A stretch of DNA of 64,000 bases from a virus: positions 1 to 64,000 of IMG/VR virus record IMGVR_UViG_3300001681_000071; one strand, given 5' to 3'. Below the pieces are notes generated by a model, which searched no databases, was not told the DNA's origin, and saw only the letters and a program-made list of their open reading frames with translations. Position numbers and translations under genes: made by a program. Positions 2,940-22,006 of the stretch are shown in pieces (within the stretch, counting starts at the first letter, position 1; every line of letters starts with the position of its first letter).

Positions 2940-3014
2940 TATAATTATCAATTATTACTATCAATTACTATCAATTGTAATTATCAATTATTACTATCAA
3001 TTATCACTATCAAG
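2940..3014. repeat. AT-rich degenerate tandem repeat (TATCAATTA/TTAC units)
   Basis: TATCAA occurs about 6 times in ~75 bp of non-coding DNA. Confidence 0.8.
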
Positions 3015-3225
3015 TACAGATATAATTGTAATTAAGAAACGTTAAAGAATCTACCAATGGTACTAACAATGAATCAAGAATCACGCAAATTCATTTTACA
3101 ATTAAAAATAATTAGCACCACCAAAGAAGAAGGGGAAGTAGCTTGTTTTCACTACAACCCCATGGAGCGGAAATTTGATAGGAAATTTTTACGGCTAGTG
3201 GAAAACCGTGGCGGGAAAGATCACC

Positions 3226-3606
3226 CTACCACCTTTTCTTCCAACCGTTAACAAGAGACTGAGCCGGACCACTTGGTAACGATAGCGATACTCCTGGCCT
3301 TCTGGCTTTTGGCTGATGCCCAACGATGTGAAGCGTTTCGTAAATGTTCCCTCTGTTATCCCGACGAACCTTAATCGTTATACCAGCACCAAAGATAGTA
3401 GCTTTCGTATCTACGCTGGCTTTTGCTACTTCTAACAGTAGTTCTAAAGTGGGAATGTCCAAGATCATCTGAATGTTTCTGCCACAGGTGGGACCACCAA
3501 GAGTGTACTCACGTAGCACCTCGTCTTGTCCAGCTATCTGGAGGCACGTGTCCTTTCTCTTTACTTTTACTTCGTCCATAATTGGGGTGTTAGTGTCATA
3601 CATCAA
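3226..3606 (-). CDS. hypothetical protein
   Basis: 126-aa ORF overlapping the end of the upstream terS-like gene. Confidence 0.7.
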   Translation of the reverse strand: MMYDTNTPIMDEVKVKRKDTCLQIAGQDEVLREYTLGGPTCGRNIQMILDIPTLELLLEVAKASVDTKATIFGAGITIKVRRDNRGNIYETLHIVGHQPKARRPGVSLSLPSGPAQSLVNGWKKRW

Positions 3607-4339
3607 TCACCTCACGCAACCCAGAAACATCAATGTCCTTATCCTTAGATCGAATGGCACCAAGTACAGCTTGCAACTCGCAAACATCTTCATACATAGC
3701 TTCAACTATATCTTCGCCACGAGCCTTAGCATCACTGACCCTAACCGACTCAACAAGCAGCTTACCGCCATGCTTACCACTATCACCATCCGATAGCTCA
3801 GAACGCAACTGAAGTAACAAGGGCAAGTCCCTAAGAGTCCTACGAATCTCCTTATCTTTTATCCCCTGGGCTACATACCCAATAGCGGCATCAAGTAACA
3901 TCAAATGCTTGCGCTTCATCTCAGCGGTGAATATCGTTCCTTCATCCGGTCTGGACTCACGGATGCTTCGCTCTACCTCATCAGCTACGCCCTGAGACAA
4001 CGGAGAGATCGCTGTTAACGGAGCCATGATGTTCTTCTTTACAGCCTCGATCTCAGAGATGCCATACTTGTCGAAGTACAGCTCTCTGTAAAGTGCTTGT
4101 GCCTGAGACTCTACTGTTCCGCTCTGACAACGAGTATCCCAACTCCACCGAACCTTGAATTCCCTTATAGTCGTAGCCGCTCTGTCCAAAGCCCGTCCAA
4201 CAGCCCGTTGATTCCGTAGCTTAGGTGCTTGCATCGCCCACAATAACATGGCGCGGTGAGCCCTTTCCGACTCGCGCGGTTGGCGTGTCAATGGCCCCAT
4301 AGAACGAACGGGTTTATGCTTTTTTACCTTGTTTTTCAT
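3596..4339 (-). CDS. putative terminase small subunit (HTH)
   Basis: RQPRESERAHRAMLLW...RNQRAVGRALDRAATTIREFKVRWSWDTR resembles the ES..A..AF..Y...RS...VA..L......W...W..R TerS pattern; SD GGGGGA before ATG 4339. Confidence 0.55.
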   Translation of the reverse strand: MKNKVKKHKPVRSMGPLTRQPRESERAHRAMLLWAMQAPKLRNQRAVGRALDRAATTIREFKVRWSWDTRCQSGTVESQAQALYRELYFDKYGISEIEAVKKNIMAPLTAISPLSQGVADEVERSIRESRPDEGTIFTAEMKRKHLMLLDAAIGYVAQGIKDKEIRRTLRDLPLLLQLRSELSDGDSGKHGGKLLVESVRVSDAKARGEDIVEAMYEDVCELQAVLGAIRSKDKDIDVSGLREVIDV

Positions 4340-4960
4340 GCTAATTCCCCCATACAATTTGTAATTCTACTCATGATGTTCGTGAATTCTATACCTTTCC
4401 CTTAAAATAGCCCATAAATTACTAACATGTGAACGTGTTGTAATTTGGTAGAGGTACAGTGTTAGGTTGTTCTTTCGTTGATAAGTCAGTTAGTAAGTGG
4501 TTAATGGTAGCCCTAACAGAGCTGGTTAGAATAGACGGGTATTTGTTGGGGAAGTTGTGTTTGCGGGAGTGTTTTTTGTATTTAGCCCTAATTCCCTTAT
4601 ATGGTTGCGGTTGATTTTGGCAGGGTGTTGTGATTTGTTAGAAAATCCTTGTGGTTGTTTGTTTAGGGTAGTTTGGTGTTGAGTTGTGAGCTGTAGTAGG
4701 TGTGTTTTGTGCGGGTGAATTACGATTTGTTGAAAATGATAGGGTTTTTTCTGGCTTATGTAGAATTGTTAGGTTTGGCCCTGGCTTTTCGATCTTTCTT
4801 AACGGAATCGGCAAAATGTGGGATTGGCAGTAAGAATATCTCCCATTTTGGTTACGCATCGGGTATAATAAGCATGAGGGATTGTTGAAATTTTATTTGT
4901 CGAAACTATTCGATAGCACCCTTTTCAAAGTTAACCACCCAACCATAGAGGAACCTAACC

Positions 4961-5368
4961 ATGGAACAAGCTAACCCATTCGATCTCAATGACCGTATTA
5001 TCCAAATCAAGAAGGAAAGGAGAGAAAAAAAGAAGTTAGGTCGAAGCCAAGCGAAGGACAATAAGCCCAATTACTTAATGACAGTAGGCGGTATCACCTA
5101 CTACTTGAAGCCGGTAGTTAGCCGGTATGGTGAGTGGGGCCGACCCCATCAGGAGATGCTTGGGGTTTGCTTCCTTGCGAAGTCTACGGCTAACTCAGGG
5201 AAGGCAATGAGCAACTATACGGAGGTTAGCTCCGAGGGTTGGCTAACTCTACCCAAGCAAACCAGATGTGAACTTAGGGATAGAGCTAATCTTCTTATGT
5301 GTGGAGGTAGCCGATCTAGGACTTCCTCGATCAACAAGTTTATGAAGGCTTACCCACAGCCAAGATAG
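4961..5368 (+). CDS. hypothetical early protein
   Basis: 135-aa ORF with GAGGA SD and AC-rich leader. Confidence 0.8.
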   Translation: MEQANPFDLNDRIIQIKKERREKKKLGRSQAKDNKPNYLMTVGGITYYLKPVVSRYGEWGRPHQEMLGVCFLAKSTANSGKAMSNYTEVSSEGWLTLPKQTRCELRDRANLLMCGGSRSRTSSINKFMKAYPQPR

Positions 5369-5444
5369 TTTTACGGGGCTAGTGATAGCCCCACCTTTTA
5401 ACATGATTTACTTTACTCACCCTAACCAACAGAAGGAACCAACC

Positions 5445-5852
5445 ATGGAACAAGTTAACGAAAACAACCGGCTTATAGCGCGTATAAACGCTATGTTTGC
5501 TGGACGAGAAGAGACAATAGTAGAGTACCGCGACATAGGCTCGGCTTTGCCGGGTAGCTGGTCGATTGGGATTGTGAAAGAGAAGCGAGATAAGCAGAAA
5601 GCCTTTCCGTCGGTGTTAGGATACGGCTTGTCGCGGTCAGTTACCACAAAGGTAGCTATCTATAAGTCGAATGGTCAAGAGTTAACCAAGGAAGAGTGGG
5701 TAGCATTGTCCTACGGTAACAGGAGACTGTTCGTGGTAGAGGTAGAGATAGAGTATCGCATTCCAAACTTGGTTTGCGATATGGATGGGGGGATCAATAG
5801 CTACCCTTTCCAGATGAGCGATAAAAAGAGAGAAGAAAACTTTCTGGCGTAG
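5445..5852 (+). CDS. hypothetical early protein
   Basis: Start moved to the ATG after SD GAAGGA. Confidence 0.8.
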   Translation: MEQVNENNRLIARINAMFAGREETIVEYRDIGSALPGSWSIGIVKEKRDKQKAFPSVLGYGLSRSVTTKVAIYKSNGQELTKEEWVALSYGNRRLFVVEVEIEYRIPNLVCDMDGGINSYPFQMSDKKREENFLA

Positions 5853-5936
5853 TACTGCTAAGTTTCCGGGGTGCTAGTCGGCCCCTATTTTAACTCTATT
5901 TATACTTTACTAACCACAAACCAATGGAAGGAACCA

Positions 5937-6410
5937 ATGATTATCACTAACCACCAACCGTGGGCTTTAGCTCTTAATGGACAGAGATACGACAGGAACC
6001 AAAAGGGAACAGCCTTCTGGAACGGCCCGATAACCCTAACTAACGAAATTAACGTAGGGGAGGTGCTTCGTCAGAAGCTACGTGGGATGTGGGCAAGGAA
6101 AACAGAGGAAGGCAATTGGATGATTGAATCCATCAGCAATAGCCGGAAAGAAAGTTTAGATAGCTTTCTTGACAATATGGTTAAGGCCGAGAGTATTAGT
6201 CCAACAAGCTCTTGTCTTGTTATCGACCATAATAGACGGGTAAGGGCGGAGCGTGGATTGTTTGAGTTTGAGATACTAGAGTTTCGCTTTATGGTTCCTT
6301 CGGACCAGACAAAAGCGCGAGCATTTTGCTCAGATGATTTTGTTGGCGTAGAATTGTTTAAGTTGCGGGAGGCTTTCAAAGATGAGTTTGCGAAACTTAT
6401 CGCTGAGTAG
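5937..6410 (+). CDS. hypothetical early protein
   Basis: Start moved to the ATG after SD GGAAGGA. Confidence 0.8.
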   Translation: MIITNHQPWALALNGQRYDRNQKGTAFWNGPITLTNEINVGEVLRQKLRGMWARKTEEGNWMIESISNSRKESLDSFLDNMVKAESISPTSSCLVIDHNRRVRAERGLFEFEILEFRFMVPSDQTKARAFCSDDFVGVELFKLREAFKDEFAKLIAE

Positions 6411-6499
6411 TTTTCGCTTTACCCGTCCAGCCAGGGCTAACCAGTAGCCCCATTTTCACTCTATTTATCTTTACTGCTAACCACAAACCGGAGAAAATA

Positions 6500-6666
6500 A
6501 TGTTGTATACACTGAAAACATGGAAAACCGAAAGCTCAAAACCACAGGAGCAAGAGCCCATCTACTTGCAAAGGTATGGATTTGGAAAGGTTTCCACTCC
6601 AAAATCCACATTATCTCTCGGAATGGAAAGGTTGTTACCGAACTAGATAAGCCAACTGCGGAATAG
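6500..6666 (+). CDS. small hypothetical protein, possibly frameshifted
   Basis: SD GGAG + ATG 6500 gives 48 aa. A second frame from ATG 6520 ends at the TAG (6666) that abuts the next repeat element. Confidence 0.45.
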
Positions 6667-6763
6667 TTTTCGCTTTACCCATCTCGCCAGGGCTAACCCG
6701 TAGCCCTATTTTCACTCTATTTATACTTTACCTATAACCCCCGACAATGGAAGGAACCCAACC

Positions 6764-6958
6764 ATGACACCTACTGAAATTAAAGAGCTTATTGAGTCAT
6801 ACAATAAAGATGATAACTGTGAAAGGTTCAAGACGGAAGAACTGCTAGTTCTTCTTAGCATCTTCAAAGGCGAGTGGCCCATAGTGGAAGAGTTAGAACT
6901 CAGAGCTATGGTACGACGTACCGTAAATGAGAGCGATTTTGCTTGCTACGGTACATAG
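6764..6958 (+). CDS. hypothetical protein
   Basis: 64-aa ORF between repeat elements, strong SD. Confidence 0.75.
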   Translation: MTPTEIKELIESYNKDDNCERFKTEELLVLLSIFKGEWPIVEELELRAMVRRTVNESDFACYGT

Positions 6959-7057
6959 TTTTGCTTGGCGGTTAGCTACCGCCTTTTAACATGATTTATA
7001 CATACTTTACACAACCCGCTACCGAAAGGTAGCACTAACCAACGGAAGGATAAAACC

Positions 7058-7474
7058 ATGGATGACTATAGCTCAGTAATATATAGGAATAACCACAGGG
7101 CGGTGAGGCTACCGTCCACTCCACATGAGGTGGAGATCACCAAGAACTTAACCGACGAAGAACACGAAGCTCTTCAGGTGGTTGATGTATACAAAAAAAC
7201 ACAGCTTAACTCTATCCATCCGTGGATGGACTTAAACGATGAAGGGATGCTTTCCTCTCTGTGGGGTCGAGCTAGCTTTTGTGAAGGAAACACAGGGCCA
7301 GACGACACATACTACAATCCGGTGTTCCGGAACATAACAAAGGCTAACAGGGTTTTTGTTAGTCTTTTTGGACGAACAGAAGTTAGCAAAATGTCATACT
7401 GGTTCCTTCAAGGGCCAAACGAAGCAAACAAGACAGTAACAATCATTACGCAAATACAATTAGGAGGTGGATGA
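7058..7474 (+). CDS. hypothetical protein
   Basis: 138-aa ORF, strong SD. Confidence 0.8.
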   Translation: MDDYSSVIYRNNHRAVRLPSTPHEVEITKNLTDEEHEALQVVDVYKKTQLNSIHPWMDLNDEGMLSSLWGRASFCEGNTGPDDTYYNPVFRNITKANRVFVSLFGRTEVSKMSYWFLQGPNEANKTVTIITQIQLGGG

Positions 7475-7893
7475 TGGAAGATACAGAGACAACGGAAGAT
7501 ACAGCTATGGTTAACGCCATAGAGCAGCTATGGACGATGCTCAACAAACCCTCTAAGAGCAAGTACGAGGCCGATGTTAAAGCCAAGCGGGTGGCTAAGT
7601 CAGCCAAGCTGCTTGTGATCCGGATGACACCGGATGAACTCCCCTATGATATTACATGGTCCGATTGGGCCTATGGTAACTTGGAGGTTCCTATGTCTTA
7701 CCGGACGTTTAAGGACAATAATGGTAGCCCATACTTCTCGAAAGAGAACATAGAAAAAATGGAGGCGGATCGGGCTAACCTCCCAGAAGTTCCCGAAGCT
7801 TTCTGGGGTGCTATCTCCTTAGAAGAAGAAGCTAACCGTCGGGTGTTTAGAAACGCCCTCAGTACGGACGTTAGCATCGGGAGAGGTATTTAG
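7471..7893 (+). CDS. hypothetical protein
   Basis: ATGA overlap with the upstream gene, SD GGAGG. Confidence 0.8.
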   Translation: MMEDTETTEDTAMVNAIEQLWTMLNKPSKSKYEADVKAKRVAKSAKLLVIRMTPDELPYDITWSDWAYGNLEVPMSYRTFKDNNGSPYFSKENIEKMEADRANLPEVPEAFWGAISLEEEANRRVFRNALSTDVSIGRGI

Positions 7894-7973
7894 CCTGTTT
7901 AGCCATTTGGCGGTTGGCTCCCGTCTTTTAATTCTATTTATACTTTACTAACAACCAACCCGGAAGGAACCAA

Positions 7974-8078
7974 ATGACTAACCTTTTCTATCTTATACTA
8001 CTTGGCGGTGGGCTGATCTTATACGGACTTTTCGTCAATATACTTGAACGCCTAAACACGGAAGGAACCAATGAATAA
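7974..8078 (+). CDS. small single-TM membrane peptide (34 aa), not in the ORF track
   Basis: MTNLFYLILLGGGLILYGLFVNILERLNTEGTNE after a repeat element and SD GGAAGGA. Confidence 0.65.
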   Translation: MTNLFYLILLGGGLILYGLFVNILERLNTEGTNE

Positions 8079-8340
8079 ACCAATCCCGTTGCAAACAACT
8101 ATAGTTCATAGCCTCAGAAAGTATTCATTTGAGGGGGGCTATCCCCTGTTTTACACGGGAGAACACAACAATGTCCATTGCGCGGATTGCGCGGAAGAAT
8201 GTAGCTTCGACGATGCTAACTATGTCGCTCACCGGACAGAGGCCGTCAATTGGGAAAGCGAGATCCACTGTGATCTATGTTCAGAAAAGATCGAGTCAGC
8301 TTACGGATATGATGAAGATTCCGTGGAAGATGAAAGCTAG
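8071..8340 (+). CDS. small acidic zinc-binding protein
   Basis: GGYPLFY...CADC...CDLC...IESAYG. Confidence 0.75.
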   Translation: MNKPIPLQTTIVHSLRKYSFEGGYPLFYTGEHNNVHCADCAEECSFDDANYVAHRTEAVNWESEIHCDLCSEKIESAYGYDEDSVEDES

Positions 8341-8425
8341 CTCTCCAGGGGGATAGCGGGTTGCGCTACTCCTATTTTAAGATGATTTATACTTTACTAT
8401 ACAACCCAAACCAGAGGATAGAACC

Positions 8426-8896
8426 ATGGGACTACACCTAACAGAACTGTTCTGGAGCTATGATGAACCGGCTCCAGATTCGGCTACATTCCGGAAGATA
8501 ACACCGGAAGAATACCAGGAGCTACGCGCTCCTGTGGCTAACCGAATGAAGATGATACCTATCACTCTCTCGGTAGGTGCTAACGACTATCATAAGGTAG
8601 TTTTATACACGACAGAAGTTAACGGAGATGGAAGTAAGCGTGTTTTTATCAAAATACTTCCTTCTTTTTTACCTTCACGGGCTGTTGGCTTCGAGCAGTT
8701 AGGTCTTACGATCTGGACAAGCGATACCTATATAGACCCAAACCACTTCTGTAGGCTTTTCGGTGATGTTATCGAAGATAGCGACGAAGATAATATGGTC
8801 TTTCGGGCAACAAAGTACAAGTATGTTGGCTGGCGTGATGAATTAAATAGTTTGGGTGAGGTTGTACCAGAACGACTACCCTATATTCGCCAGTAG
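8426..8896 (+). CDS. hypothetical protein
   Basis: 156-aa ORF after a repeat element. Confidence 0.8.
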   Translation: MGLHLTELFWSYDEPAPDSATFRKITPEEYQELRAPVANRMKMIPITLSVGANDYHKVVLYTTEVNGDGSKRVFIKILPSFLPSRAVGFEQLGLTIWTSDTYIDPNHFCRLFGDVIEDSDEDNMVFRATKYKYVGWRDELNSLGEVVPERLPYIRQ

Positions 8897-9001
8897 CTCG
8901 TGTTTAGCTGTACTGCATTTATACCAAGGGGATAACTCCCCTATTTTAGGATGATTTTCATCTACTCAACTTTACCAACTAACAACCAACCAAGGAAGAC
9001 C

Positions 9002-9346
9002 ATGAGAGCTTTAACATTAAGAACAGATAAAAGAACTTTAGACTATAGGGAACACAGCCTACTGCTAAGTGTCCTGAAAGTTAAAAGTAGACAGATCCGC
9101 TATATGAAAGTGTATCTGGATAGCTTGCCATTGCTAACAAACAACGAGCGAAAGATTGATTATGGGCCATTGTTTGCTAGTTTTCTTGACGACAATGACC
9201 TAACCAGAAGTCATCGCTTGTTTATCAATAACTTTGGTAAAGCAAAAAGCGAGAGCATTCTGGATTGGGAGTTAGGGAAAGAGACAGATAGGGATGGAAC
9301 GATCCACGACAACGTAACTATTACCTATATTGTCCCAAGCGAATAG
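9002..9346 (+). CDS. hypothetical protein
   Basis: Start moved to the SD-associated ATG. Confidence 0.75.
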   Translation: MRALTLRTDKRTLDYREHSLLLSVLKVKSRQIRYMKVYLDSLPLLTNNERKIDYGPLFASFLDDNDLTRSHRLFINNFGKAKSESILDWELGKETDRDGTIHDNVTITYIVPSE

Positions 9347-9431
9347 GCTCAGTTCTAACTACCAAAGGGTGGCTATGTCGCCCTATTTTTAGACTATTTA
9401 TGCTTTACCAACAACCAGCCAAGGGGATGAT

Positions 9432-9644
9432 ATGAATAACTACAAAATAGTACGCTTTTACCAAGAACGTTTTGTTAGACAAGCAACAATAAAAGAAGGG
9501 CTTAGTCTTGAAGAAGCTAAGGACCACTGTAGCGATCCAGAAACGAGCAGTACAACTGCTAAGTCGGAAGAATCGGTAGCTCACACCAAGGAATTTGGAA
9601 AGTGGTTCGATGGATATAGAAAAGAAGACCAACCAAACAGATAA
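9432..9644 (+). CDS. small hypothetical protein
   Basis: YKIVRFY...IKEGLSLEEAKDHCSDPETSS...WFDGY; follows a repeat element. Confidence 0.75.
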   Translation: MNNYKIVRFYQERFVRQATIKEGLSLEEAKDHCSDPETSSTTAKSEESVAHTKEFGKWFDGYRKEDQPNR

Positions 9645-9762
9645 GCATTGTGGGTGTAACTATAATTATAGTTGTGCTGCACAAGCAAAAGAAGACTCAC
9701 ACACAAACCGGAAGGAAGAACCAATGATTACCACTACCAATCACAAACGAAGGAAGGAAGCT

Positions 9763-9924
9763 ATGAAAAACTACAAAGTTACTGGAGTATTACGAAGTGG
9801 AGCGCGGTTTAAGGCAATCCACACCACCAACCCTTATTATGCTATGGGTATAAACCTGTTTCGTGGTAACGTGTGGGAAAAGTCGAACGGCAAATGGAAG
9901 ATCATAAAGTCCGTTTGGAATTAA
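9763..9924 (+). CDS. small hypothetical protein
   Basis: SD GGAAGGAAG before MKNYKVTGV; alternative start at 9724. Confidence 0.65.
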   Translation: MKNYKVTGVLRSGARFKAIHTTNPYYAMGINLFRGNVWEKSNGKWKIIKSVWN

Positions 9925-10030
9925 GATAAGAAAAGCTTTACCGAAGGAGTAGGTTTGATAACCATCCTTCTATTTTCAGATGATTTATTTACCATTTTAC
10001 CAACTAACAACCAACCAAAGGAAGATAACC

Positions 10031-10603
10031 ATGGGACCAAGAGTACCACTGTCCGTTGCAAGGAAGCAGCGACAAGAGATAATAGCTCACATAGAGAGCG
10101 CCATTAAAAAAGCGATAGACCTAACGCCAGGGTGTCCGGTAGCTATGGACTTGTATACGCTAAAGGCGTTTGCAATAGCGTTAGCGGAAGCTGACGAATA
10201 CATAGGTGAACTGGAGAGAGCCACGCCACATGAGCCAGCACCTAAGCAAAGCTTGTTGGATAACACCAACGAGTATTACACTAACTACTACAAGTCGTTT
10301 CCCTATAGTGACAGCGAAGTAATAACAGGAAGCTTTCACGGAAGTCGTCTTACGGGATTCCCGGTAGACGAATGGTTACAAGGCTTTGATAATAACTGGT
10401 GGGTAGAGATATATGCTTGCCCATATACAGAAGATAAGCCACCTAAGTGTAAAGACGCCCTACCCAAGAGCGAGGTTAAGTCTTGGAGCCGGAAAGGTAG
10501 TGAATACTCAGAAGAGTATCCTCCGTTGTGGGGGTTTTCAGAGACTCCATGGGTCTTAGGTCCATGTGAGATCATGACCACATTGGGTAATACACTAAGC
10601 TAA
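10031..10603 (+). CDS. hypothetical protein
   Basis: Start moved to the SD-associated ATG. Confidence 0.75.
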   Translation: MGPRVPLSVARKQRQEIIAHIESAIKKAIDLTPGCPVAMDLYTLKAFAIALAEADEYIGELERATPHEPAPKQSLLDNTNEYYTNYYKSFPYSDSEVITGSFHGSRLTGFPVDEWLQGFDNNWWVEIYACPYTEDKPPKCKDALPKSEVKSWSRKGSEYSEEYPPLWGFSETPWVLGPCEIMTTLGNTLS

Positions 10604-10687
10604 GATTATACCTTTGGGGTTAGGTTAAAAACCCCTTTTAATTCTATTTATGCTTTACACTCACAACCCAAACCAAGGAAGATAACC

Positions 10688-11029
10688 ATGACCTACTTTA
10701 CCACCAACGACGGACACACATTGACTGTGTATAGTTCTTTATACATGGACTACGGTCTAACCATAACAAAAGATGGGGAAGAGTTGTTTAGCAATCCCCA
10801 TGTTCTCAGCCACGAAAGCTATGGTAGCAAACCAAGCGAAGATTATGATGACATGGAAGAAGCGGAAGAAGCGTTAGAAAATGGAGATGAAAATGCTATC
10901 GTTCCTTGGGAAGATAGCGATTGGTCTGAGATGCTTGAACTAGAGGCCGACGAACTTATAGAAGCATTTATTGTTAAGGACTTTACAACCACAAACCAAA
11001 CCAACGGAGCTAACCATGAGCAATCATAG
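10688..11029 (+). CDS. highly acidic protein, paralog of 18844..19194
   Basis: Shared DYGL.I...G..L...S.E.YGSKP.E.Y.D..EA...GD..A...W.D.DW...LE.EADEL. Confidence 0.8.
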   Translation: MTYFTTNDGHTLTVYSSLYMDYGLTITKDGEELFSNPHVLSHESYGSKPSEDYDDMEEAEEALENGDENAIVPWEDSDWSEMLELEADELIEAFIVKDFTTTNQTNGANHEQS

Positions 11030-11276
11030 AGCAGTAGTACAATCATTCTTAAAGTCACAACCAGACAGGGGTTGCAACCTTGTCAGTGATGGTAAGGCCG
11101 TAAGATCATACGGTCATTTAGTCATAGCTGAATGGAAAGGAAAAGGTCTTGTAGTTTATAACTACACTTCCAAGAATGGCGGTACGTCGCGAAGTACCTC
11201 CACAACCCGTCACGTTAACATGGTTATGGAAGGAGCCATTGTCAGCGGTAGGGAGTTTACTCTTGTAAACCCGTAG
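11016..11276 (+). CDS. hypothetical protein
   Basis: MSNHRAVV...SYGHLVIAEW...STSTTRHV; SD GGAG. Confidence 0.75.
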   Translation: MSNHRAVVQSFLKSQPDRGCNLVSDGKAVRSYGHLVIAEWKGKGLVVYNYTSKNGGTSRSTSTTRHVNMVMEGAIVSGREFTLVNP

Positions 11277-11360
11277 CATCTACAGGTACGGAGACTTAAC
11301 CAACCTCCTTTTAACATGATTTATACTTTACTTTACCAACCAACCAACAAGGGGGAAACC

Positions 11361-11849
11361 ATGAGAAGTCAACAGAAAGAACAGCCAGAAAAACTAAGGG
11401 AACGTGAGCCTAAGTGTTCTGAGGCCATAAATAACGGACTACAACGGTTAGCAGAAGTACCGGAAGAGGTAATAGCTCTTATGAACTATGACTGTTTTGA
11501 AGATAAAAACTACATTCTTAGCTTCACAGAAAATGTTCTAATTAACCAATTTGAAACCTATGAATATGGAATGGCTGACGATGACCTTAGTGAGATAATG
11601 GGTATCTTAGAGTGGCTATTCATAAATGGCTATAAACAACCTGCCATATCGCTTATCCATCCACTTGGATGGGGAGACTTTACCCTCATAAACTGGGAAA
11701 AAGGACGCTCTTACTTTATTAAGGGAAAGCCAAGCGAAGATAAGGGCTACGATTTGGGTAGAAAGATACCTTGTGAGCCATATAACGTAACATATGGTGA
11801 AGGAGACAATAGCCGAACATACAGTATTAAGTATCACTATTGTCGGTAA
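11361..11849 (+). CDS. hypothetical protein
   Basis: Start moved to the ATG after GGGGGA. Confidence 0.75.
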   Translation: MRSQQKEQPEKLREREPKCSEAINNGLQRLAEVPEEVIALMNYDCFEDKNYILSFTENVLINQFETYEYGMADDDLSEIMGILEWLFINGYKQPAISLIHPLGWGDFTLINWEKGRSYFIKGKPSEDKGYDLGRKIPCEPYNVTYGEGDNSRTYSIKYHYCR

Positions 11850-11973
11850 CAACTTGATGTGATCTTGGGATCTAACCACTCCCCCATTTTAACATGATTT
11901 ATATATTTACCAGTTTAGAACCACTTTCACTCGATGCAGTTAAGTCTGTATCACTAACACCATGGGAGAAACC

Positions 11974-13176
11974 ATGACCACAACCAATCAGATAACTCCG
12001 GTTCGACCAAAACCGGATACAACGCCACCAAGACCTAAGTTAGTCGTAAGCGAAGATACCGTTTCTGGAACTATAGAGCGAGACTATGGCTTAGGTCATA
12101 CTGTTTGCTGGATAACTACCGGGAGATGGATGCCAGACACGGTTAAAGACGCTGCTATCAAGGGAGGTATAGACCAAGACTTGATTGACGATATAGGAGA
12201 AATTCCGGCAAGGACAGCGGCTCTGCGAGCTAAGGACAACTTCAATCGAAAGAACACGAAGAAAGATGTTCCCCGTAAAGCAGAAATTGTCAAAAGCGGA
12301 GGTAACGACCAAGTTGAGGTAGCTATACTCGAAAGAGATAATGAAAACCCCAAAAGACCGTGGAAGTTGACCAACACCGTGTACGTTAACAACGACAAAG
12401 GAACAAAGACTACACCAAACCCTGACTATGGACAGATTATTGGAGCGATAACCCCGGAAGGCTCGGAGTTTGAAGCTATCTACCATAATGAAAAGTCAAC
12501 ACTAACCGGAAACGACATATACACCACCATCATAAAGCCAACTACGGAGCGAGCGAGGCGGATCCCAATGGCGCGTGGTCTTTACTTCATCAGTAAGAAG
12601 TACACAGACAAGGTTGTGAGCCTTAAAGTGCTATGTCGGTTGCTCGGTATCCGATTTAAGTCGTTAACACTTATGAACGACCAGGATACCAAGGAAACGG
12701 TACAGATAGATGCAAGGGAAGAGATAGAAAAGAACATCACCAAGGTTAAGGAAGCACTGAAGGTATGGGAAGGCAAGGATAACATTCAACAACGGAGCCA
12801 GGATAGGGTACTGGAAGAGTTAGCCGAACTACTCTCATTAGCCGAAGAAGTAAGGGTTACGTTAGAAGTCGAAACGGAAGACTTAATTAAGGCAATAGAG
12901 TTAGTAAAGGACAAAGCTGACGATATAATAGATGGAAAGAATAACCTCTACACTCCTGAGCAGTTGGTAGCTTGGCAAGCCTTTCTGAACCCTTCAAACG
13001 CTGACGAAGTAACGTCTAACGGATGCACTTTCATAGTGTCCCGTAAAGATATTCCGGGCTTTAGCGAGGCTGACCACCAATGTTTGATGAAGCTTGACCA
13101 TTACATGTTCGCCCTTGATGATCTTGATGGCGAAGGCAATAATTTGATTATGGTTCAAGATTGTAAGGAGATTTGA
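11974..13176 (+). CDS. DUF6744/DUF3150-like protein (MoxR/VWA-associated)
   Basis: LGHTVCW...P.RTAALRA, helical C-terminus, near an AAA+VWA pair; family assignment from memory. Confidence 0.5.
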   Translation: MTTTNQITPVRPKPDTTPPRPKLVVSEDTVSGTIERDYGLGHTVCWITTGRWMPDTVKDAAIKGGIDQDLIDDIGEIPARTAALRAKDNFNRKNTKKDVPRKAEIVKSGGNDQVEVAILERDNENPKRPWKLTNTVYVNNDKGTKTTPNPDYGQIIGAITPEGSEFEAIYHNEKSTLTGNDIYTTIIKPTTERARRIPMARGLYFISKKYTDKVVSLKVLCRLLGIRFKSLTLMNDQDTKETVQIDAREEIEKNITKVKEALKVWEGKDNIQQRSQDRVLEELAELLSLAEEVRVTLEVETEDLIKAIELVKDKADDIIDGKNNLYTPEQLVAWQAFLNPSNADEVTSNGCTFIVSRKDIPGFSEADHQCLMKLDHYMFALDDLDGEGNNLIMVQDCKEI

Positions 13177-13177
13177 G

Positions 13178-13849
13178 ATGAAAATAGACCACTTCGCAAA
13201 GATTAATACTGGCGTTCAAATAAGAACCGAGGAAGATGTTATTGATGTTTCCAGAGGTACGTTTAGGTGGCTGTGTGGTGTTAACACCGACAATAGCTCG
13301 CCAACAAACATTGCTTTTGTAAGCACTCCCGCTACATACGACCTATGTTTGGTTGACGACCCAGATAACTTACACCATGACTCTTCTTTCCGGCTAATGG
13401 GAAAGCTACACTTCGCAGCCTTTCTGATTGGTGTGGAAACAGCCGATTATGTTATGATTATGGACAAAGGATCAACCGGAGAACTATTAGAAGAAACTCC
13501 GGATCTTTATGTAAAGGCTATAAGGTATGGCAAAATGGAGGCGGGTCCATTCTTAATAGAAGAGAGCGTTGAAGAAGTGACGGTAGGTGTATTGTTTAAT
13601 AAGGATGGGCCTATTTGGCTGGGATCCTTTGGTAGACAGTTCACCAAGTTTGTAACGCCAAAAGTTAAAAACTGGGTAGGGTCGAACGGATTAAACTTTA
13701 TGAAGTTTATAGATAAAAAGGAATTTCGCAGCTTAGATGAGTATTTTCATGAGTTTGATAAAGAATCCTTAACAGAAAGACCGGAAGACCTTGAGTTCTG
13801 TTCTCTTGTAAACAGAGCCCGTAAATTTGCTTGTTCTGATCTTAATTGA
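13178..13849 (+). CDS. hypothetical protein
   Basis: 223-aa ORF coupled to the upstream gene. Confidence 0.8.
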   Translation: MKIDHFAKINTGVQIRTEEDVIDVSRGTFRWLCGVNTDNSSPTNIAFVSTPATYDLCLVDDPDNLHHDSSFRLMGKLHFAAFLIGVETADYVMIMDKGSTGELLEETPDLYVKAIRYGKMEAGPFLIEESVEEVTVGVLFNKDGPIWLGSFGRQFTKFVTPKVKNWVGSNGLNFMKFIDKKEFRSLDEYFHEFDKESLTERPEDLEFCSLVNRARKFACSDLN

Positions 13850-14007
13850 TCCACACCTTGGGGGAGGTATATATCCCCCGCTTTAACTATGATTTACTAT
13901 AATGCTATTTATACAATATGTAGAACTAAATAGAAGTTCCACGCACAGACATTTTTCAACCGGGATATTTTTCCCAATCAACCAACCAACCAAAACCGGA
14001 TAAAACC

Positions 14008-15222
14008 ATGGAACCCTTAGCGATAGCTACAACCTCTCAACCCAATAAGGGTGAGGATATAGATAAAGCCATACAGAGATACAATGGCTTTCAAGACGCT
14101 CTTAATGACGCCTTCTTAGAGATGGAAGACGAAGTTAGAGCAATACTCATTGGACTTATATCGAAGCACAACGTGTGGCTTATAGGTCCACCGGGAACAT
14201 CGAAGTCATTGTTGGTAGAAGTTATAAGCCAAGCAATGTTGGATGAAAAAGACCTTCCTATGGGCTTCTTCCAGTATTTGATAAACCGCTACACTACCCC
14301 TGATGAGCTTCTGGGACACTTCTCCTTGAAGAAGCTAAAGGAAGACGACCTCCAGGTGAGGCGCGTGGCTGGGAAGTTACCAGAGGCGATCTTCGCGTTC
14401 TTGGATGAGTGGGAAAAGGGTAACTCTGGAACCCAAAACTCATTGCTTACAATGATGAATGAAAGAAAGTACGATGTAGGTGACGGTACGCGAAAGAAAG
14501 CACCGTTAGAGATAGTAGTTGGAGCCAGTAACGGATACCTAAAGAGCCCAGAACTTGCCGCATTGTGTGATAGGTGGATGTTTCGTGTCGAAACCGGCTA
14601 TATCGTACAAGATAAGAACTGGGATAGGCTACTATTTGATAAGGACATTGGAAAGACTACATCGACCATTAAGTGGAGCGATATTCTCTTAATCCGTGAA
14701 CGCGCAGATAATGTAGACCTTAGTGGTCTAAGACAAGTTCTCCATGACATTCGACAAGAGCTAAGTGAACGTAGGATAGTGGTATCTGACCGACGTTGGC
14801 GAAACATTCCGCCAATTCTCAGAGCAGAAGCCGCAGTTAACGGTAGAACGAAAGCGATTGATAGTGATTGTGGTATTTTACGCCACGTTCTATGGTCTAC
14901 ACAAGAGCAGAAAAATGTGGTCTCTCAAATCATCAACAAACTATGTAACTCCGAGATGAACAAAGCCACGGAAGTCAAGGCGTTAGCTGATGGTATCTAT
15001 CAACAGCACATTGAGATGAAAAGCTCTGGCGTAACAGACTTGAACGAATGGAAGAAGATTAAAGGAGGAATAGAAGACCTATATGATGATTCACAGAGGT
15101 TAGATGCTACAGATAAGCAGATAATAGTGATCACAGATAGGATTAAAACCCAAGTTGAAGAGATCAAAGATCATTTCCGGTTCCTTGTTTATGGCAAGAA
15201 GCGCAACGGTCTTAGGAGGTAA
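14008..15222 (+). CDS. MoxR/RavA-family AAA+ ATPase
   Basis: Walker A GPPGTSKS, FFQYLINRYTTPDELLG, Walker B FLDE, NSLLTMMNER, GASN, ALCDR, VSDRRW. Confidence 0.9.
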   Translation: MEPLAIATTSQPNKGEDIDKAIQRYNGFQDALNDAFLEMEDEVRAILIGLISKHNVWLIGPPGTSKSLLVEVISQAMLDEKDLPMGFFQYLINRYTTPDELLGHFSLKKLKEDDLQVRRVAGKLPEAIFAFLDEWEKGNSGTQNSLLTMMNERKYDVGDGTRKKAPLEIVVGASNGYLKSPELAALCDRWMFRVETGYIVQDKNWDRLLFDKDIGKTTSTIKWSDILLIRERADNVDLSGLRQVLHDIRQELSERRIVVSDRRWRNIPPILRAEAAVNGRTKAIDSDCGILRHVLWSTQEQKNVVSQIINKLCNSEMNKATEVKALADGIYQQHIEMKSSGVTDLNEWKKIKGGIEDLYDDSQRLDATDKQIIVITDRIKTQVEEIKDHFRFLVYGKKRNGLRR

Positions 15223-15224
15223 TT

Positions 15225-16883
15225 ATGTATAAACCAACACAGCTATTGAGAGTTAAAAAAGATAAAGACCCAAACCTAGCTTATCAAACTAGCCGAATGA
15301 GTAATTTTAGGTTTAGTGTGAGATGTGCTTACCGTGGAAACTCACAGTTATCGGAGGCGGTTGACGGGTTTGTTGATTGTATAGAGAGTGGCGAAGACTA
15401 CTCTGATCCAACTAACAACCCAGATACTTATAGCCAGGAGACTCCCAGAACCCATGCAGAACAGTTTGGCAAAGAACTGTTCAACCAGATGTTAGAGAAC
15501 CCTGACCCGGTAGGCGATGATGACGGGGAACAATGGGCAAAAGACGCAATGGGTGTAATAAATGAACTAACTTCATTCAAAGACCTGAAATACACCGTGA
15601 AGGGTGACGCTGACTTCTCAGCACTTGCGACTGCTCAACTCTTGCATGAAGGGAAAGAGTCTATAAGCGAACTGCGAAGGCAACAAAAGGAAGAAGAGAA
15701 TGAAGAACAACCACCTGATCCTAACGGCCCTCCGGGTGGAGGAGGTGGCGAAGGCGATGATAGCGGAGAAGGCGAAGACGCTCCAGATGGAAAAGGAAAG
15801 CCCAAAGAAGATAGCAAGCAACAAGAAGATAAGAAAGAACGCCAGAAGCAACGTGAGAAGGAAAGGGAGAGGTCAAAAGATAAACTGCGCTCTAAGGTCT
15901 TTAAGAAAGTAAAGGAAATCAATGAAGACTTTGAGGATGCTATGTCCTGTATGTCTACCATCCCAGGAATGGAGGACGGAGATATTCTTAACGGAGAAGA
16001 TTCCGCTAAACGAATGGAGATAGCCAAAAGACTTCTTAACGACAAACGCTTCCGCGCCATTATGGACATGGCGGGTCGTATGGAGATAGTTAGCTCCGGT
16101 GTTCCTTTAATGTCAAAAATGGCTAAAGAGAAAGTTGTTGGAGTGGAGACAGGAAACGATCTTCCATTCGTTCTTAATAGCGAGATAGGAAACTTAGCTG
16201 ATCCAGAGACAGAGGACATATTCTACAATCGCTTCATAAGGTCAGAATTGCTTCAATATGAAATGGAAGGAGAAGACACTAAGGGGAAAGGTCCGTTGGT
16301 GGTCATGCTCGATGCTTCCAGTAGTATGCGGGGGCGTCGTAATGAATTCACTCAGGGTATGGCTGCTGCCATACTAAGTAGCTGCTATAAAGAAAAGCGA
16401 ACAGTTATCTTCGCTGACTTCAATTACAGTGTCAAAGCTATCTATTCGTATAATGGAGATACAGGGTATTGCAACGTTGGTAATAGTAACTTTGCGAACG
16501 TTAAAACAACCGATTGTATAACGCTTATTGAAAAGCTATTATCGCGTGGTTGTAGTGGTGGTACGTCCTTTGATTCCGCACTTGTATGGGCAATGGCTAA
16601 CTCAGCTTGGGATGGCTGCGATAAAGACAGTGGCCCAGATATAATCATGCTAACTGATGGAGATTGCCATATCTCCACAAGTACAAGTGAGAAAGCTAAC
16701 GAAATAAAAGAAGAAAACGGAGTACGCTTTTGGGGAATACTTGTAGACCCAAGCCTTAGAGGTAACGATATACCAGATGAATTCTGTAAGGTTTTCAATC
16801 ACAGCGTAATAGTTGATACCAGTAATATTGAACAGGGTATTGGAGCTATAGGCGAACTGATAGGCAAAGCGAACGATAGATAA
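15225..16883 (+). CDS. VWA-domain protein (ViaA/CoxE-like)
   Basis: MIDAS DASSSM, GGTSF, LTDG; acidic Gly-rich linker; adjacent to the MoxR ATPase. Confidence 0.88.
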   Translation: MYKPTQLLRVKKDKDPNLAYQTSRMSNFRFSVRCAYRGNSQLSEAVDGFVDCIESGEDYSDPTNNPDTYSQETPRTHAEQFGKELFNQMLENPDPVGDDDGEQWAKDAMGVINELTSFKDLKYTVKGDADFSALATAQLLHEGKESISELRRQQKEEENEEQPPDPNGPPGGGGGEGDDSGEGEDAPDGKGKPKEDSKQQEDKKERQKQREKERERSKDKLRSKVFKKVKEINEDFEDAMSCMSTIPGMEDGDILNGEDSAKRMEIAKRLLNDKRFRAIMDMAGRMEIVSSGVPLMSKMAKEKVVGVETGNDLPFVLNSEIGNLADPETEDIFYNRFIRSELLQYEMEGEDTKGKGPLVVMLDASSSMRGRRNEFTQGMAAAILSSCYKEKRTVIFADFNYSVKAIYSYNGDTGYCNVGNSNFANVKTTDCITLIEKLLSRGCSGGTSFDSALVWAMANSAWDGCDKDSGPDIIMLTDGDCHISTSTSEKANEIKEENGVRFWGILVDPSLRGNDIPDEFCKVFNHSVIVDTSNIEQGIGAIGELIGKANDR

Positions 16884-16910
16884 CTAACCAACAAACCAGA
16901 AGGAAAACCA

Positions 16911-18847: not shown

Positions 18848-19194
18848 GCGTTTATGCCACTAAGGATGGTTTTATTTTGACCGTGACCAAGGGTGATGTT
18901 GATTATGGCTTGCGTATAGAGGACTCAAACGGTGTGACTCTCTATTTTTCGTCTGTTGCTTTTTCTTCTGAGGAATATGGCAGTAAACCAGCGGAACGGT
19001 ACGAAGATTACGATGAGGCCGATATGGCTTATTTGGATGGGGATAAAGATGCTTTTATTGAGTGGGATGATGAGGATTGGGAACAAGTATTAGAAGACGA
19101 GGCAGATGAACTTCTTAATAGATTAGCCGGTATAGACGGTGGCGTTATTGAGAGAACGGACAACCCTATAAGGACAGTTATTTCAAGATTATAA
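18844..19194 (+). CDS. highly acidic protein, paralog of 10688..11029
   Basis: ATGA overlap; shared YGSKP...W.D.DW...LE.EADEL motif. Confidence 0.8.
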   Translation: MSVYATKDGFILTVTKGDVDYGLRIEDSNGVTLYFSSVAFSSEEYGSKPAERYEDYDEADMAYLDGDKDAFIEWDDEDWEQVLEDEADELLNRLAGIDGGVIERTDNPIRTVISRL

Positions 19195-20996: not shown

Positions 20997-21333
20997 TTTC
21001 ACCTATTACACCTATTACACATACTATCAATGCGACTCTACTGAGGGGTTTTCAACAGAGGTAAAGGGGAGCAATGGAAATACCTACACGGTAAGATACG
21101 TAGCATCCAACCACAAAGAACATGACTGCTCTCATGGGTATAGCTGTACGTGTCCTGTCTATAAATCCACCAAAACAGCACTATGCAAGCATATTGAACA
21201 AGCACGAAAAGAAGGGAGGCACTGTACTTGGATGCAGTTTCTCGACGGAGGGCAACCTACCGTAGAACCTGATGGAACACACTTGTGTCCTGAGTGTGGA
21301 AGCGATGTAACCAAAAGACAATGGGCTTGCTAA
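20989..21333 (+). CDS. SWIM zinc-finger + zinc-ribbon protein, copy 1
   Basis: GSNGNTYTV...YSCTCP...CKHI...CPECG. Confidence 0.8.
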   Translation: MTDFTYYTYYTYYQCDSTEGFSTEVKGSNGNTYTVRYVASNHKEHDCSHGYSCTCPVYKSTKTALCKHIEQARKEGRHCTWMQFLDGGQPTVEPDGTHLCPECGSDVTKRQWAC

Positions 21334-21372
21334 GAAGACAACAATAAACAATCAAACCAGTAGGAAAACAAG

Positions 21373-21708
21373 ATGCATGATTTTACATACCATACATATT
21401 ACCAATGTAACTCAACCGAAGGCTTTTCAACAGAGGTAAAGGGAAGCAATGGAAACGCCTATACCGTAAGATACGGATCGTCCGGTCACAAAGAACATGA
21501 TTATTCTCATGGATATAGTTGTACTTGCCCTTCATACAAGTTCGATAAAAAAGCAACATGCAAGCACATTGAACAGGTAAAAAAAGAAGGTCGGCACTGT
21601 AATTGGATGCAATTTACCGATGGTAACACGCCTACGATAGAACCTGATGGAACACAAGTCTGTCCTGAGTGTGGGAACGGTATAACTGCAAGAGAATGGG
21701 CTTGCTAA
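21373..21708 (+). CDS. SWIM zinc-finger + zinc-ribbon protein, copy 2
   Basis: Near-colinear paralog of 20989..21333. Confidence 0.8.
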   Translation: MHDFTYHTYYQCNSTEGFSTEVKGSNGNAYTVRYGSSGHKEHDYSHGYSCTCPSYKFDKKATCKHIEQVKKEGRHCNWMQFTDGNTPTIEPDGTQVCPECGNGITAREWAC

Positions 21709-21718
21709 GGATACAACC

Positions 21719-22006
21719 ATGAACGATACACAATCATTAGTTAAAGCCATACAAAAAGTACAAGCTACAAGTGCTGATAATTATGACGGTTTCGATGGGG
21801 TACGACCAAACCAAAGAATAACAAATTATCTTAATGCTGTAGACGATCTTAGAGACTTATTGCTTTCGACATTTAGTGAGAGGGAACTCGGAAGATTGAC
21901 CGAATTGCTAATTGATATGCAAAGTGATTCACTTTCGGTATTTGATATGGATGGAAATGAAATACCTAAAACTATAGAGTCATTTTTGTTGGATGACTTG
22001 ATCTAA
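21719..22006 (+). CDS. hypothetical protein
   Basis: 95-aa ORF with SD. Confidence 0.7.
   Translation: MNDTQSLVKAIQKVQATSADNYDGFDGVRPNQRITNYLNAVDDLRDLLLSTFSERELGRLTELLIDMQSDSLSVFDMDGNEIPKTIESFLLDDLI

Follow-up and report, generated by a model that had tools for sequence, protein, structure and literature searches.

A repeated hairpin and box element bounding short ORFan gene units in an uncultured marine phage: a candidate terminator–promoter and recombination seam

The analysed window comprises 64,000 nt, positions 1 to 64,000 of a 79,172-bp virus record (IMGVR_UViG_3300001681_000071), which derives from an uncultured, siphovirus-like marine tailed phage of about 79 kb. Within this window lies a row of plus-strand genes opened by g0, which is preceded by a TATAAT at 4864 and by no element. 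Behind it, sequence reading and pattern scans identified 14 copies of a composite element, all on the plus strand and confined to 8.5 kb, which confirms the original prediction of about 14 hairpin and box copies bounding units of one or two genes. The coordinates of the genes and elements are given in Table 1.

Analysis of the cargo covered 18 genes, all of which proved to be ORFans. They had been described as mutually unrelated, and BLASTP among the 18 indeed finds no kinship. Searches against PHROG, Pfam and PADLOC returned no matches beyond two weak ones, of g8 to phrog_18452 (E 1e-7, the sole match in units 4-6) and of g17 to DUF6744. The g3 frame is broken in the record and becomes a single ORF of 61 aa after restoration of 19 nt that the X4 and X5 contigs contain, while g14 has a paralog at 18877-19194 with 41% identity. 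A role of the cargo in host takeover or anti-defence receives no support either way from the family and PADLOC screens. Position alone suggests that the array genes are early.

Each copy follows the same order, as originally claimed: (i) a stop codon; (ii) a hairpin with a T run; (iii) a box that includes a -10-like hexamer but lacks a -35; (iv) CTTTAC; (v) an A/C-rich leader, a Shine-Dalgarno (SD) sequence and an ATG, the last two being found downstream of all 14 copies. The distance from stop codon to box is 25-48 nt; 11 copies have 46-59 nt between box and ATG, and the remaining three 74, 88 and 126 nt. A loose 15-nt pattern with one mismatch allowed recovered 13 of the 14 copies, whereas shuffled sequences gave 4.6 +/- 2.1 matches and reached 13 in none of 100 shuffles. 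Pattern scans of the other 70 kb of the record revealed no true copy of the element, the off-array matches (71096 and 54952) being isolated chance ones. The box was likewise not found in a search of IMG/VR, JGI metagenomes and 51 distant relatives.

Table 1. Genes, elements and element remnants of the array, with positions in the window
Feature	Position	Strand	Box start	Description
g0	4961-5368	+		First + strand gene, 135 aa, pI 10; singleton ORFan
Units 1 and 2	5445-6410	+		g1 (5445-5852), g2 (5937-6410); both ORFans
Unit 3	6500-6666	+		g3
Units 4-6	6764-8340	+		g4 (6764-6958); g5+g6 (7058-7893, overlapping ATGA); g7+g8 (7974-8340)
Units 7-9	8426-9924	+		g9 (8426-8896); g10 (9002-9346); g11+g12 (9432-9924)
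Units 10-12	10031-11849	+		g13 (10031-10603); g14+g15 (10688-11276); g16 (11361-11849)
Unit 13	11974-13849	+		g17 (11974-13176), g18 (13178-13849)
Element 1	5375-5416	+	5396	GGGGCTA/TAGCCCC, TTTTAAC, ATG-type box, CTTTAC
Element 2	5868-5910	+	5888	GGGGT/GCCCC, TTTTAAC, TCT-type box, TATACT, CTTTAC
Element 3	6434-6474	+	6453	GGGCTA/TAGCCC, TTTTCAC, TCT-type; left of g3-flanking near-duplicate pair
Element 4	6689-6731	+	6709	AGGGCTA/TAGCCCT, TTTTCAC, TCT-type; right of g3-flanking pair
Element 5	6967-7010	+	6984	GGCGGT/ACCGCC, TTTTAAC, ATG-type box, TATACATACTTTAC
Element 6	7909-7948	+	7926	GGCGG/CCGTC (one G-U pair), TTTTAAT, TCT-type box
Element 7	8348-8397	+	8375	10-pair bulged hairpin, TTTTAAG, ATG-type box
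Element 8	8927-8975	+	8944	AGGGGA/TCCCCT, TTTTAGG, ATG-type box (ATTTT), CTTTAC 13 nt on
Element 9	9366-9408	+	9386	8-pair hairpin, TTTTTAG, ACT-type box, TATGCT, CTTTAC
Element 10	9943-10001	+	9973	Long bulged hairpin GAAGGA.../...TCCTTC, TTTTCAG, ATG-type box, TTTACC twice
Element 11	10616-10658	+	10636	GGGGTT/AACCCC, TTTTAAT, TCT-type box, TATGCT, CTTTAC
Element 12	11290-11336	+	11309	Weak hairpin GGAG/CTCC, TTTTAAC, ATG-type box, CTTTAC twice
Element 13	11867-11910	+	11887	Weak hairpin (-3.7 kcal/mol), TTTTAAC, ATG-type, TATATATTTACC; then 88-nt leader
Element 14	13859-13918	+	13882	GGGGGA/TCCCCC, two tandem boxes: ATGATTTA-C-TATAAT and CTATTTA-TACAAT
Half-element before g15	10981-11015	+		CTTTAC, AACC leader and SD; no hairpin, no box
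Relic TTTTCG-CTTTAC	6411-6422	+		Between g2 stop codon and element 3 hairpin

The hairpin is present in all copies and has a stem of 4-10 bp, mostly 5-8, with the 3' arm ending 0-3 nt ahead of TTTT in 13 of the 14. A G-rich 5' arm and a C-rich 3' arm characterize 13 hairpins, and the folding energy lies between -8 and -14 kcal/mol in 12, copies 12 and 13 being weak. In element 6 this placement of the 3' arm requires the GGCGG/CCGTC pairing, which is not the minimum-energy fold. Variable stems with conserved pairing had been proposed, and all 14 stem sequences do differ; the first 2-3 stem pairs, however, are almost invariably G-C (5' G run, 3' C run), so that true compensatory variation is confined to the distal pairs. 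When the whole record was scanned strictly for a hairpin followed by TTTT, 21 matches were obtained on the plus strand, nine of them at elements, and four on the minus strand, at a shuffle baseline of about 1.5 matches per strand. All 14 elements have the geometry of an intrinsic terminator (a GC-rich hairpin, then a U tract), with two weak stems and a U tract of just 4 nt, owing to which the predicted termination may be weak.

The box that follows has a fixed register, TTTT-N6-ATTTA, with TTTT present in 13-14 and ATTTA in 11-14 of the 14 copies. The sequence behind the hairpin, originally given as TTTTAA, is corrected here to TTTT + (A/C)(A)(N). Three box types were distinguished, ATG-type (n=8), TCT-type (n=5) and ACT-type (n=1), and the two main forms, ATGATTTA and TCTATTTA, are conserved at -25 to -13. 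CTTTAC is enriched on the plus strand of the array (19 occurrences vs about 3 expected) and does occur after the box as described, but in no fixed register, at 0-13 nt past ATTTA.

A hexamer of the form TAnnnT overlaps the box at a fixed register in 11 of the 14 copies, and a consensus scan found no -35 hexamer at any box, both in agreement with the claim of a -10-like box lacking a -35. The -35 slot coincides with the variable 3' arm of the hairpin. An extended -10, with TGn directly before the hexamer, is also absent: the preceding three bases are ATT in nearly all copies, and the TG of the ATG-type box sits 2 nt too far upstream. With neither a -35 nor a TGn, the site is expected from its sequence to be used poorly by the standard sigma-70 holoenzyme, unless the host recognizes promoters by the -10 alone or an additional factor assists. 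Searches of the record for a phage RNA polymerase or sigma factor found neither. A PF00940 search gave no match there, and the PF00940 control matched in no genome either. Large ORFs scanned with PHROGs all match non-polymerase families except one of 1337 aa, which adjoins the tape-measure gene and has no PHROG match.

Several copies are duplicated or degraded. Element 14, located 126 nt from the ATG of a MoxR ATPase operon, carries the ATTTA and TAnnnT combination twice in tandem, once with a perfect TATAAT. The relic TTTTCG-CTTTAC recurs at 6667-6678, and an orphan CTTTAC lies at 9936. Elements 3 and 4 belong to direct repeats (6402-6482 and 6658-6739; 82 nt, 86.6% identity) which flank g3. 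A stretch of 56 nt in element 2 recurs in elements 4 and 6 with 85.7% identity, and elements 8 and 10 have 60 nt in common at 83%.

The elements had also been proposed as seams of gene gain and loss, and this is backed by two differences in the X6 relative. The marine contigs of X6 lack element 3 and g3; there, g2 runs from its 3' end directly into the flank of element 4 at 6674. A full TCT-type element precedes g15 in X6, where the record keeps only the CTTTAC half-element (at 10981). In an X5 variant a breakpoint falls in the leader after element 1. The informative breakpoints number three, each taken from 30-nt ends of metagenome contigs, and they are only moderate causal evidence, since viable indels are expected between genes anyway.

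Taken together, the element is rather likely to be a composite of an intrinsic terminator and a promoter, similar in function to the promoter/stem-loop modules (PeSLs), which insulates units of one or two genes and serves as a recombination seam. The hairpin with its UUUU would act as a modest intrinsic terminator or attenuator, ending or damping transcription from the upstream unit. The box and the overlapping TAnnnT would form a promoter whose -10-like hexamer is read by host RNA polymerase, with transcription predicted to start about 7 nt downstream, within or just past CTTTAC. The resulting leader would be 20-30 nt long, unstructured and A/C-rich, with a strong SD, and the array would fall into 14 insulated units of one or two genes each. 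Neighbouring elements have 55-80 nt in common at 83-87% identity, through which general homologous recombination could delete, insert or swap whole units and leave the neighbours undisturbed. The phage has an exonuclease.

PeSLs are known from the T4-type myoviruses RB49/phi1, T4/PST and KVP40/nt-1 (Arbiol et al. 2010, PMC2839356; Comeau et al. 2014, PMC4122927), where recombination of tandem copies is described as producing mini-circles, and PeSLs with the same order of parts showed promoter and terminator activity in reporter assays (PMC2839356). The elements described here resemble them in several respects: (i) a stem-loop immediately upstream of the promoter part, followed by SD and start codon; (ii) stems of G and C runs; (iii) many copies in a plastic region of small ORFans; (iv) indels at elements among close relatives, although with few breakpoints here, and direct-repeat elements flanking one ORFan. 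Degraded "1/2 PeSLs" have been described (PMC4122927), which the half-copies, relic boxes and orphan CTTTAC of this array resemble. However, there are also major differences. These relate to the phage, a 79-kb siphovirus-like marine phage rather than a T4-like myovirus, and to the box, which is lineage-specific and matches neither TTGACA-N17-TATAAT nor TTTACW-N17-TAYWAT, having instead two forms conserved upstream of the hexamer. The terminator and promoter reading of the original prediction is thus consistent with the layout and the PeSL analogy, whereas strict membership in the PeSLs fails for want of a -35 hexamer and an extended -10.

The lack of a -35 also accords with a signal acting at the RNA level, which is considered unlikely. 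One long transcript, from a start close to the TATAAT at 4864 and ahead of g0, would be cleaved at the boxes, the AU-rich box being a host RNase E-type or phage endoribonuclease site and the hairpins, as leaky terminators, guarding the 3' ends; cleavage would free one mRNA per unit, each beginning with a defined leader rich in A and C. RNase E typically cuts in AU-rich single-stranded RNA next to a stem-loop, a setting that the box beside the hairpin fits. The constrained distance from box to ATG, the location of all elements on the transcribed strand and the short 4-U tract, which would permit read-through, are likewise consistent with processing. On the other hand, about 20 nt conserved in two discrete forms exceed what an RNase E-type site needs, and the fixed register of TAnnnT and the tandem repeat in element 14 speak for a promoter. 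A search of positions 1-26000 gave no Rfam family and no ribozyme, and no RNA complementary to the box was found in the rest of the genome. The stems observed here are too short for RNase III, whose sites consist of dsRNA of about 20 bp or more and lack a T run. In the T7 early region, RNase III hairpins between genes yield single-gene messages with protected 3' ends; the array is similar in the placement of its hairpins and different in the length of its stems and in the TTTT and -10-like box that follow them.

Conservation at -25 to -13 lies exactly where a promoter without a -35 needs an additional contact, which brings in a factor-dependent promoter, a reading judged distinctly unlikely. 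A phage protein would bind ATGATTTA or TCTATTTA in place of the -35 contact, in the manner of MotA/AsiA of T4. Candidates are g0, a divergent helical 247-aa protein encoded at 3596-4339 and a protein delivered with the DNA. The first is basic (pI 10) and, alone among the genes of the row, lacks an element, yet it has no homologs at all and the box occurs in the X6 relative. The second is conserved across some 30 contigs of marine phages, and the confidently modelled N-terminal part is all-helical, but fold searches with its model were uninformative, and no DNA-binding or sigma-like family was detected in any candidate. If this reading were true, the genes of the array would be expressed delayed-early, and the two forms of the box could correspond to two timing classes. 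The thymines of the phage are probably modified (PMC13229309), and the box is T-rich. That the box serves an undescribed start system independent of a -35, one of these phage proteins binding ATGATTTA/TCTATTTA and recruiting host RNA polymerase, appears quite improbable as well; recognition might then be tuned to modified thymines, with the two forms setting timing classes.

A dedicated mobile cassette system, with integron-like or MITE-like sites and site-specific recombination, would account for the cassette-like layout, the varying hairpins with kept pairing and the direct repeats around g3, but is very improbable, since no tyrosine or serine recombinase occurs in the whole record (PF00589 and PF00239 without match, both controls matched), the stems are far shorter than those of attC sites, all elements are tied to stop codons, SDs and ATGs like expression signals, and the element was not found in the databases and distant relatives searched. 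Among known systems, the integron attC cassette was rejected, an adjacent tyrosine-recombinase integrase not having been found (PF00589 without match, control matched).

The composite terminator and promoter favoured here may also be compared with the host-takeover module of Bacillus phage SPO1, in which small early genes form a terminal block of many short operons, with strong promoters and SDs that resemble each other from operon to operon. The array is likewise a block of small genes partitioned into short units, with a recurring predicted start signal. In contrast to the array, in which a hairpin is fused to the box, the SPO1 promoters are canonical sigma-A promoters, and to our knowledge no fused hairpin and box repeat has been described as a recombination seam in SPO1. 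In keeping with the promoter reading, two distant relatives have repeated promoter modules of their own, within 20-kb loci that have the shared MoxR ATPase gene at their centre: TTGACA-17-TATAAT is present six times in L175, and a GATACT-type module eight times in L155.

In silico analysis, combining a reading of positions 5000-14400 with pattern scans, revealed 14 copies of a repeated element consisting of a hairpin, TTTT, a conserved box and CTTTAC, all on the + strand (Table). The array of about 14 copies claimed in the original prediction is a real, well-defined feature, and scans of the remainder of the 79-kb record gave zero true copies outside it. The elements, numbered 1-14 from 5' to 3', share characteristic features: (i) a distance of 25-48 nt from the preceding stop codon in every copy; (ii) a hairpin with a G-run in the 5' arm and a C-run in the 3' arm, ending 0-3 nt 5' of TTTT in 13 of the 14; (iii) a fixed-register block, TTTT (A/C)(A)(N) (A/T)(T/C)(G/T) ATTTA; (iv) a TAnnnT beginning on the final TA of this block (11/14); (v) CTTTAC at 0-13 nt downstream of the block, followed by an A/C-rich leader, SD and ATG; (vi) a box to ATG spacing of 46-59 nt (11/14). 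The predicted box consensus holds overall, with small corrections concerning the bases after TTTT and the CTTTAC spacing. Element 14 possesses two copies of the ATTTA+TAnnnT unit, one of them with a perfect TATAAT.

Twelve of the 14 hairpins fold with energies of -8 to -14 kcal/mol, and no two stems have the same sequence. Since the basal two or three pairs are almost always G-C, true compensatory change is confined to the distal pairs. A strict scan for a hairpin with TTTT returned 21 + strand sites, nine of which coincide with elements, and 4 - strand sites, compared to about 1.5 per strand in shuffled sequences. The + strand of the array contains 19 CTTTAC motifs, where about 3 would be expected; among them are a half-element (CTTTAC, leader and SD, with neither hairpin nor box) before gene g15 and orphan copies lying 5' of the hairpin in elements 3, 4 and 10.

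Coordinates of the analysed features (positions of the record unless a locus is named)
Feature	Position	Strand	Description
Record ends	1-2088; G000 (full record) 77232-79172 = L181 13232-15172		diverged mutual copies, 79-94% identity
Genes in record ends	267-1139; 77490-78491		paralogous
Motif CACGCACA(A/G)G	2834-2849; 13940; 19860, 19875, ~19890		second repeated motif; 13940 before the MoxR ATPase operon; last three in tandem upstream of the gene at 19930
AT-rich repeats	2940-3010		iteron-like, ATTATCAATTATTACTATCAATTAC and similar; non-coding region
247-aa protein	3596-4339	-	divergent
Non-coding stretch	4380-4960		~580 nt between divergent operons; G/T-rich on +, C/A-rich on - (resembling gene leaders); TATAAT at 4864; 18.8-kb contig of run X4 terminates inside, at 4768
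Element array	5396-13896	+	elements 1-14
g3	6500-6666	+	frame-broken in the record, break after 6551
g11/g12 gap	9645-9723		sole long within-unit gap; no box; AT-rich palindrome with TATAAT (ACTATAATTATAGT) within a longer hairpin
g14	10688-11029	+	acidic, pI 4.1
g14 paralog	18877-19194		downstream of array; 41% identity over 88 aa
Adjacent small genes	21019-21352; 21394-21727		tandem diverged duplication, 77.5% over 338 nt
Tail-fibre gene repeats	44008-44567		internal, diverged
Promoter copies, locus L175	L175 1331-13953		six of 45 nt (TTGACA-17-TGgTATAAT), each after a conserved ACCATA...GACCATAC box
Hairpins, locus L155	L155 7073-13142		seven or eight, each followed by GTGATACTACCCCTG

The hairpin and U tract have the geometry of an intrinsic terminator; a terminator is predicted here, and it is probably leaky because the U tract is short. 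The complete element is most likely such a terminator followed by a promoter with a 20-30-nt leader, as serial terminators require restart signals and the box is tightly coupled to the next SD and ATG. Support for reading such repeats as promoters comes from two distant relatives identified through the ATPase, which carry their own repeated promoter modules in 20-kb loci around the ATPase gene: L175 has six copies of the canonical TTGACA-17-TATAAT, and L155 has seven or eight of a GATACT-type module. A -10-like box without a -35 had been predicted, and this is what was found: the -35 slot is occupied by the variable hairpin arm, no -35 hexamer is present at the boxes, a consensus scan matched at none of them, and the TGn of an extended -10 is absent before TAnnnT. 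No sigma factor was found in the phage; the search for a T7-type polymerase gave no match, and neither did its control. The promoter would be of one of two kinds: either the host tolerates -10-only promoters with a T-rich spacer or, as a separate rival reading, some factor binds the conserved box from -25 to -13.

Alternatively, the box may act at the RNA level, as an RNase E-type processing site next to a protective hairpin. Speaking against RNA-level readings, positions 1-26000 contain zero Rfam families, the genome elsewhere offers no RNA complementary to the box, and the stems are shorter than RNase III needs. The same Rfam result disfavours a trans-acting ribozyme or sRNA, and the box complement, with G-U pairs tolerated, is only its own antisense. 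An archaeal TATA-box (TTTATA) was rejected, as the predicted start, some 25 nt further on, would lie within the SD and the T7 gp4-type primase-helicase matched only bacterial phages in the phage-record search. Checks by eye for the Bacteroidota -33/-7 grammar, an ECF 'AAC' -35, sigma-54 and CTTTAC as a T4-like -35 revealed no partner motif at the correct spacing.

Read as a terminator-promoter unit, the element resembles the promoter-early stem-loops (PeSLs) of T4-type phages, to which it had been likened. The analogy extends to the order of parts, polyG/polyC stems, ORFan surroundings, degraded half-copies and indels associated with the copies. The promoter, terminator and mini-circle activities of PeSLs have been demonstrated at the bench (PMC2839356; PMC4122927). 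However, there are differences: the element lacks the sigma-70 -35/-10 promoter that is a defining PeSL feature, it belongs to a phage that is probably of siphovirus type, and its box is specific to the lineage. On present evidence, the element would work like a PeSL that departs in one defining feature. The PeSL principle is that of a portable stop-and-start unit, which insulates small accessory genes and supplies homology for swapping them; the present array would carry it beyond T4-like myoviruses to an uncultured marine siphovirus-type lineage of hydrothermal-vent and open-ocean metagenomes. The main points of interest are the direct contig evidence of cassette turnover and the non-canonical start box, an unusual signal with a conserved upstream box and no -35, which is a short, testable candidate for a marine-host promoter grammar or a factor-dependent phage promoter.

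The elements delimit 14 units, 13 of which contain the small genes g1-g18, one or two each; unit 14 is the start of the MoxR ATPase operon. Element 1 is preceded by g0. The cargo had been described as mutually unrelated, which proved correct for the 18 proteins compared (g0-g18 minus g3); g14 alone has a paralog, located outside the array. PHROG, Pfam and PADLOC searches of these proteins gave no family, the exceptions being g8, with a weak PHROG match, and g17, with a DUF6744 match below threshold. The 18 ORFans that the elements would drive form a defined candidate set of host-interaction genes. A third g14-related copy may precede g1 in the vent variant of run X5, where the match is weak. 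The contigs of runs X4 and X5 contain 19 additional bases after 6551, which restore g3 as a single 61-aa ORF from an SD-led ATG at 6500 to a stop at 6664-6666; g3 of the record is therefore either a variant with a 19-nt deletion or the product of misassembly.

Several elements are similar beyond the box: elements 8 and 10 have 60 nt in common at 83%, element 2 has 56 nt at 85.7% in common with both 4 and 6, and elements 3 and 4, with 82 nt at 86.6%, form direct repeats flanking the tiny g3. Direct repeats around a gene missing in a relative are a classic sign of homology-driven deletion or insertion. Breakpoints were read from contigs of four runs aligned on 3200-16900. In the marine run X6, the bases before 6674 are the 3' end of g2 (23/27 matching 6386-6412), so that this relative has g2 joined directly to element 4, without element 3 and g3. 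Before 10980, X6 has a full element with a TCT-type box (25/29 bases matching element 2), whereas the record phage has only the g14 end and CTTTAC. The X5 variant departs from the record at 5424, within the leader that follows element 1. The three informative breakpoints thus all fall in element/leader modules, which account for about 15% of the array. They constitute moderate evidence that the elements serve as seams for gene gain and loss, because selection would leave intergenic breakpoints anyway. A further X5 joint, 10683 to 11970, which would skip g14-g16, was rejected as too weak (a 20-nt side and 10 nt, AACCATGACC, in common), and the pieces from run X8, short conserved patches within unrelated flanking DNA, are not informative on breakpoints. 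The whole record encodes an exonuclease and no tyrosine or serine recombinase, so general recombination is the likely agent.

The box itself appears to be lineage-specific. Two box-pattern scans of IMG/VR gave only single chance matches in AT-rich contigs that do not resemble the phage genome, as did the scan of JGI metagenomes among the matches listed; an nhmmer profile of the box run against 51 ATPase-based relatives matched its own genome only. The contigs L194 and L195, found through the 247-aa protein, and L196, a scaffold binned with a Myxococcales MAG, are too diverged and differently organised.

The 79,172-bp IMG/VR record, of which the window is the first 64 kb, is rated complete. It encodes a 1982-aa tape-measure protein, tail fibres and a T7 gp4-type primase-helicase besides the exonuclease, and therefore represents a tailed phage, probably of siphovirus type; the MoxR ATPase and a VWA-domain protein (weak match) lie directly downstream of the array. 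The best identity of TerL and the primase-helicase to any isolate is 22-27%, and no tRNA genes were found from which to assign a host. A 15-kb megablast query had zero matches among 50,697 phage records, and scanning IMG/VR with the ATPase as the only protein query revealed no close relative; a 92%-identical ATPase homolog (P0001) sits on a 2,981-bp contig. Near-whole phage DNA is present in four hydrothermal-vent runs and one small run of another study, and about a quarter of it in several open-ocean runs; the runs listed as containing it include no RNA run. The two similar record ends may reflect a true terminal duplication that has diverged, or the assembly may have joined two strains at a terminal repeat. 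For the non-coding stretch at 4380-4960, a long leader, a non-coding RNA and a genome end are all conceivable.

The 247-aa protein is helical and belongs to no family. Marine phage contigs of up to 100 kb encode about 30 homologs at 41-81% identity. Its AF2 model (pLDDT 72) gave no Foldseek match at E <= 0.001 and only generic helical hairpins in VIA-align (Z <= 7.5). The protein is accompanied by MoxR, VWA and DUF6744 genes in L194 (80.7-kb IMG/VR contig, GC 35%) and by MoxR and VWA genes in L196 (78 kb, GC 65%). With one mismatch allowed, the CACGCACA(A/G)G pattern matches 10 times in the window, where 4.2 matches are expected; the motif may serve as an operator or as a promoter of a later class. 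Clusters analogous to the repeats at 2940-3010, with ACTAATTAGT palindromes and CGTAACAAA repeats, are found near the contig end of L194.
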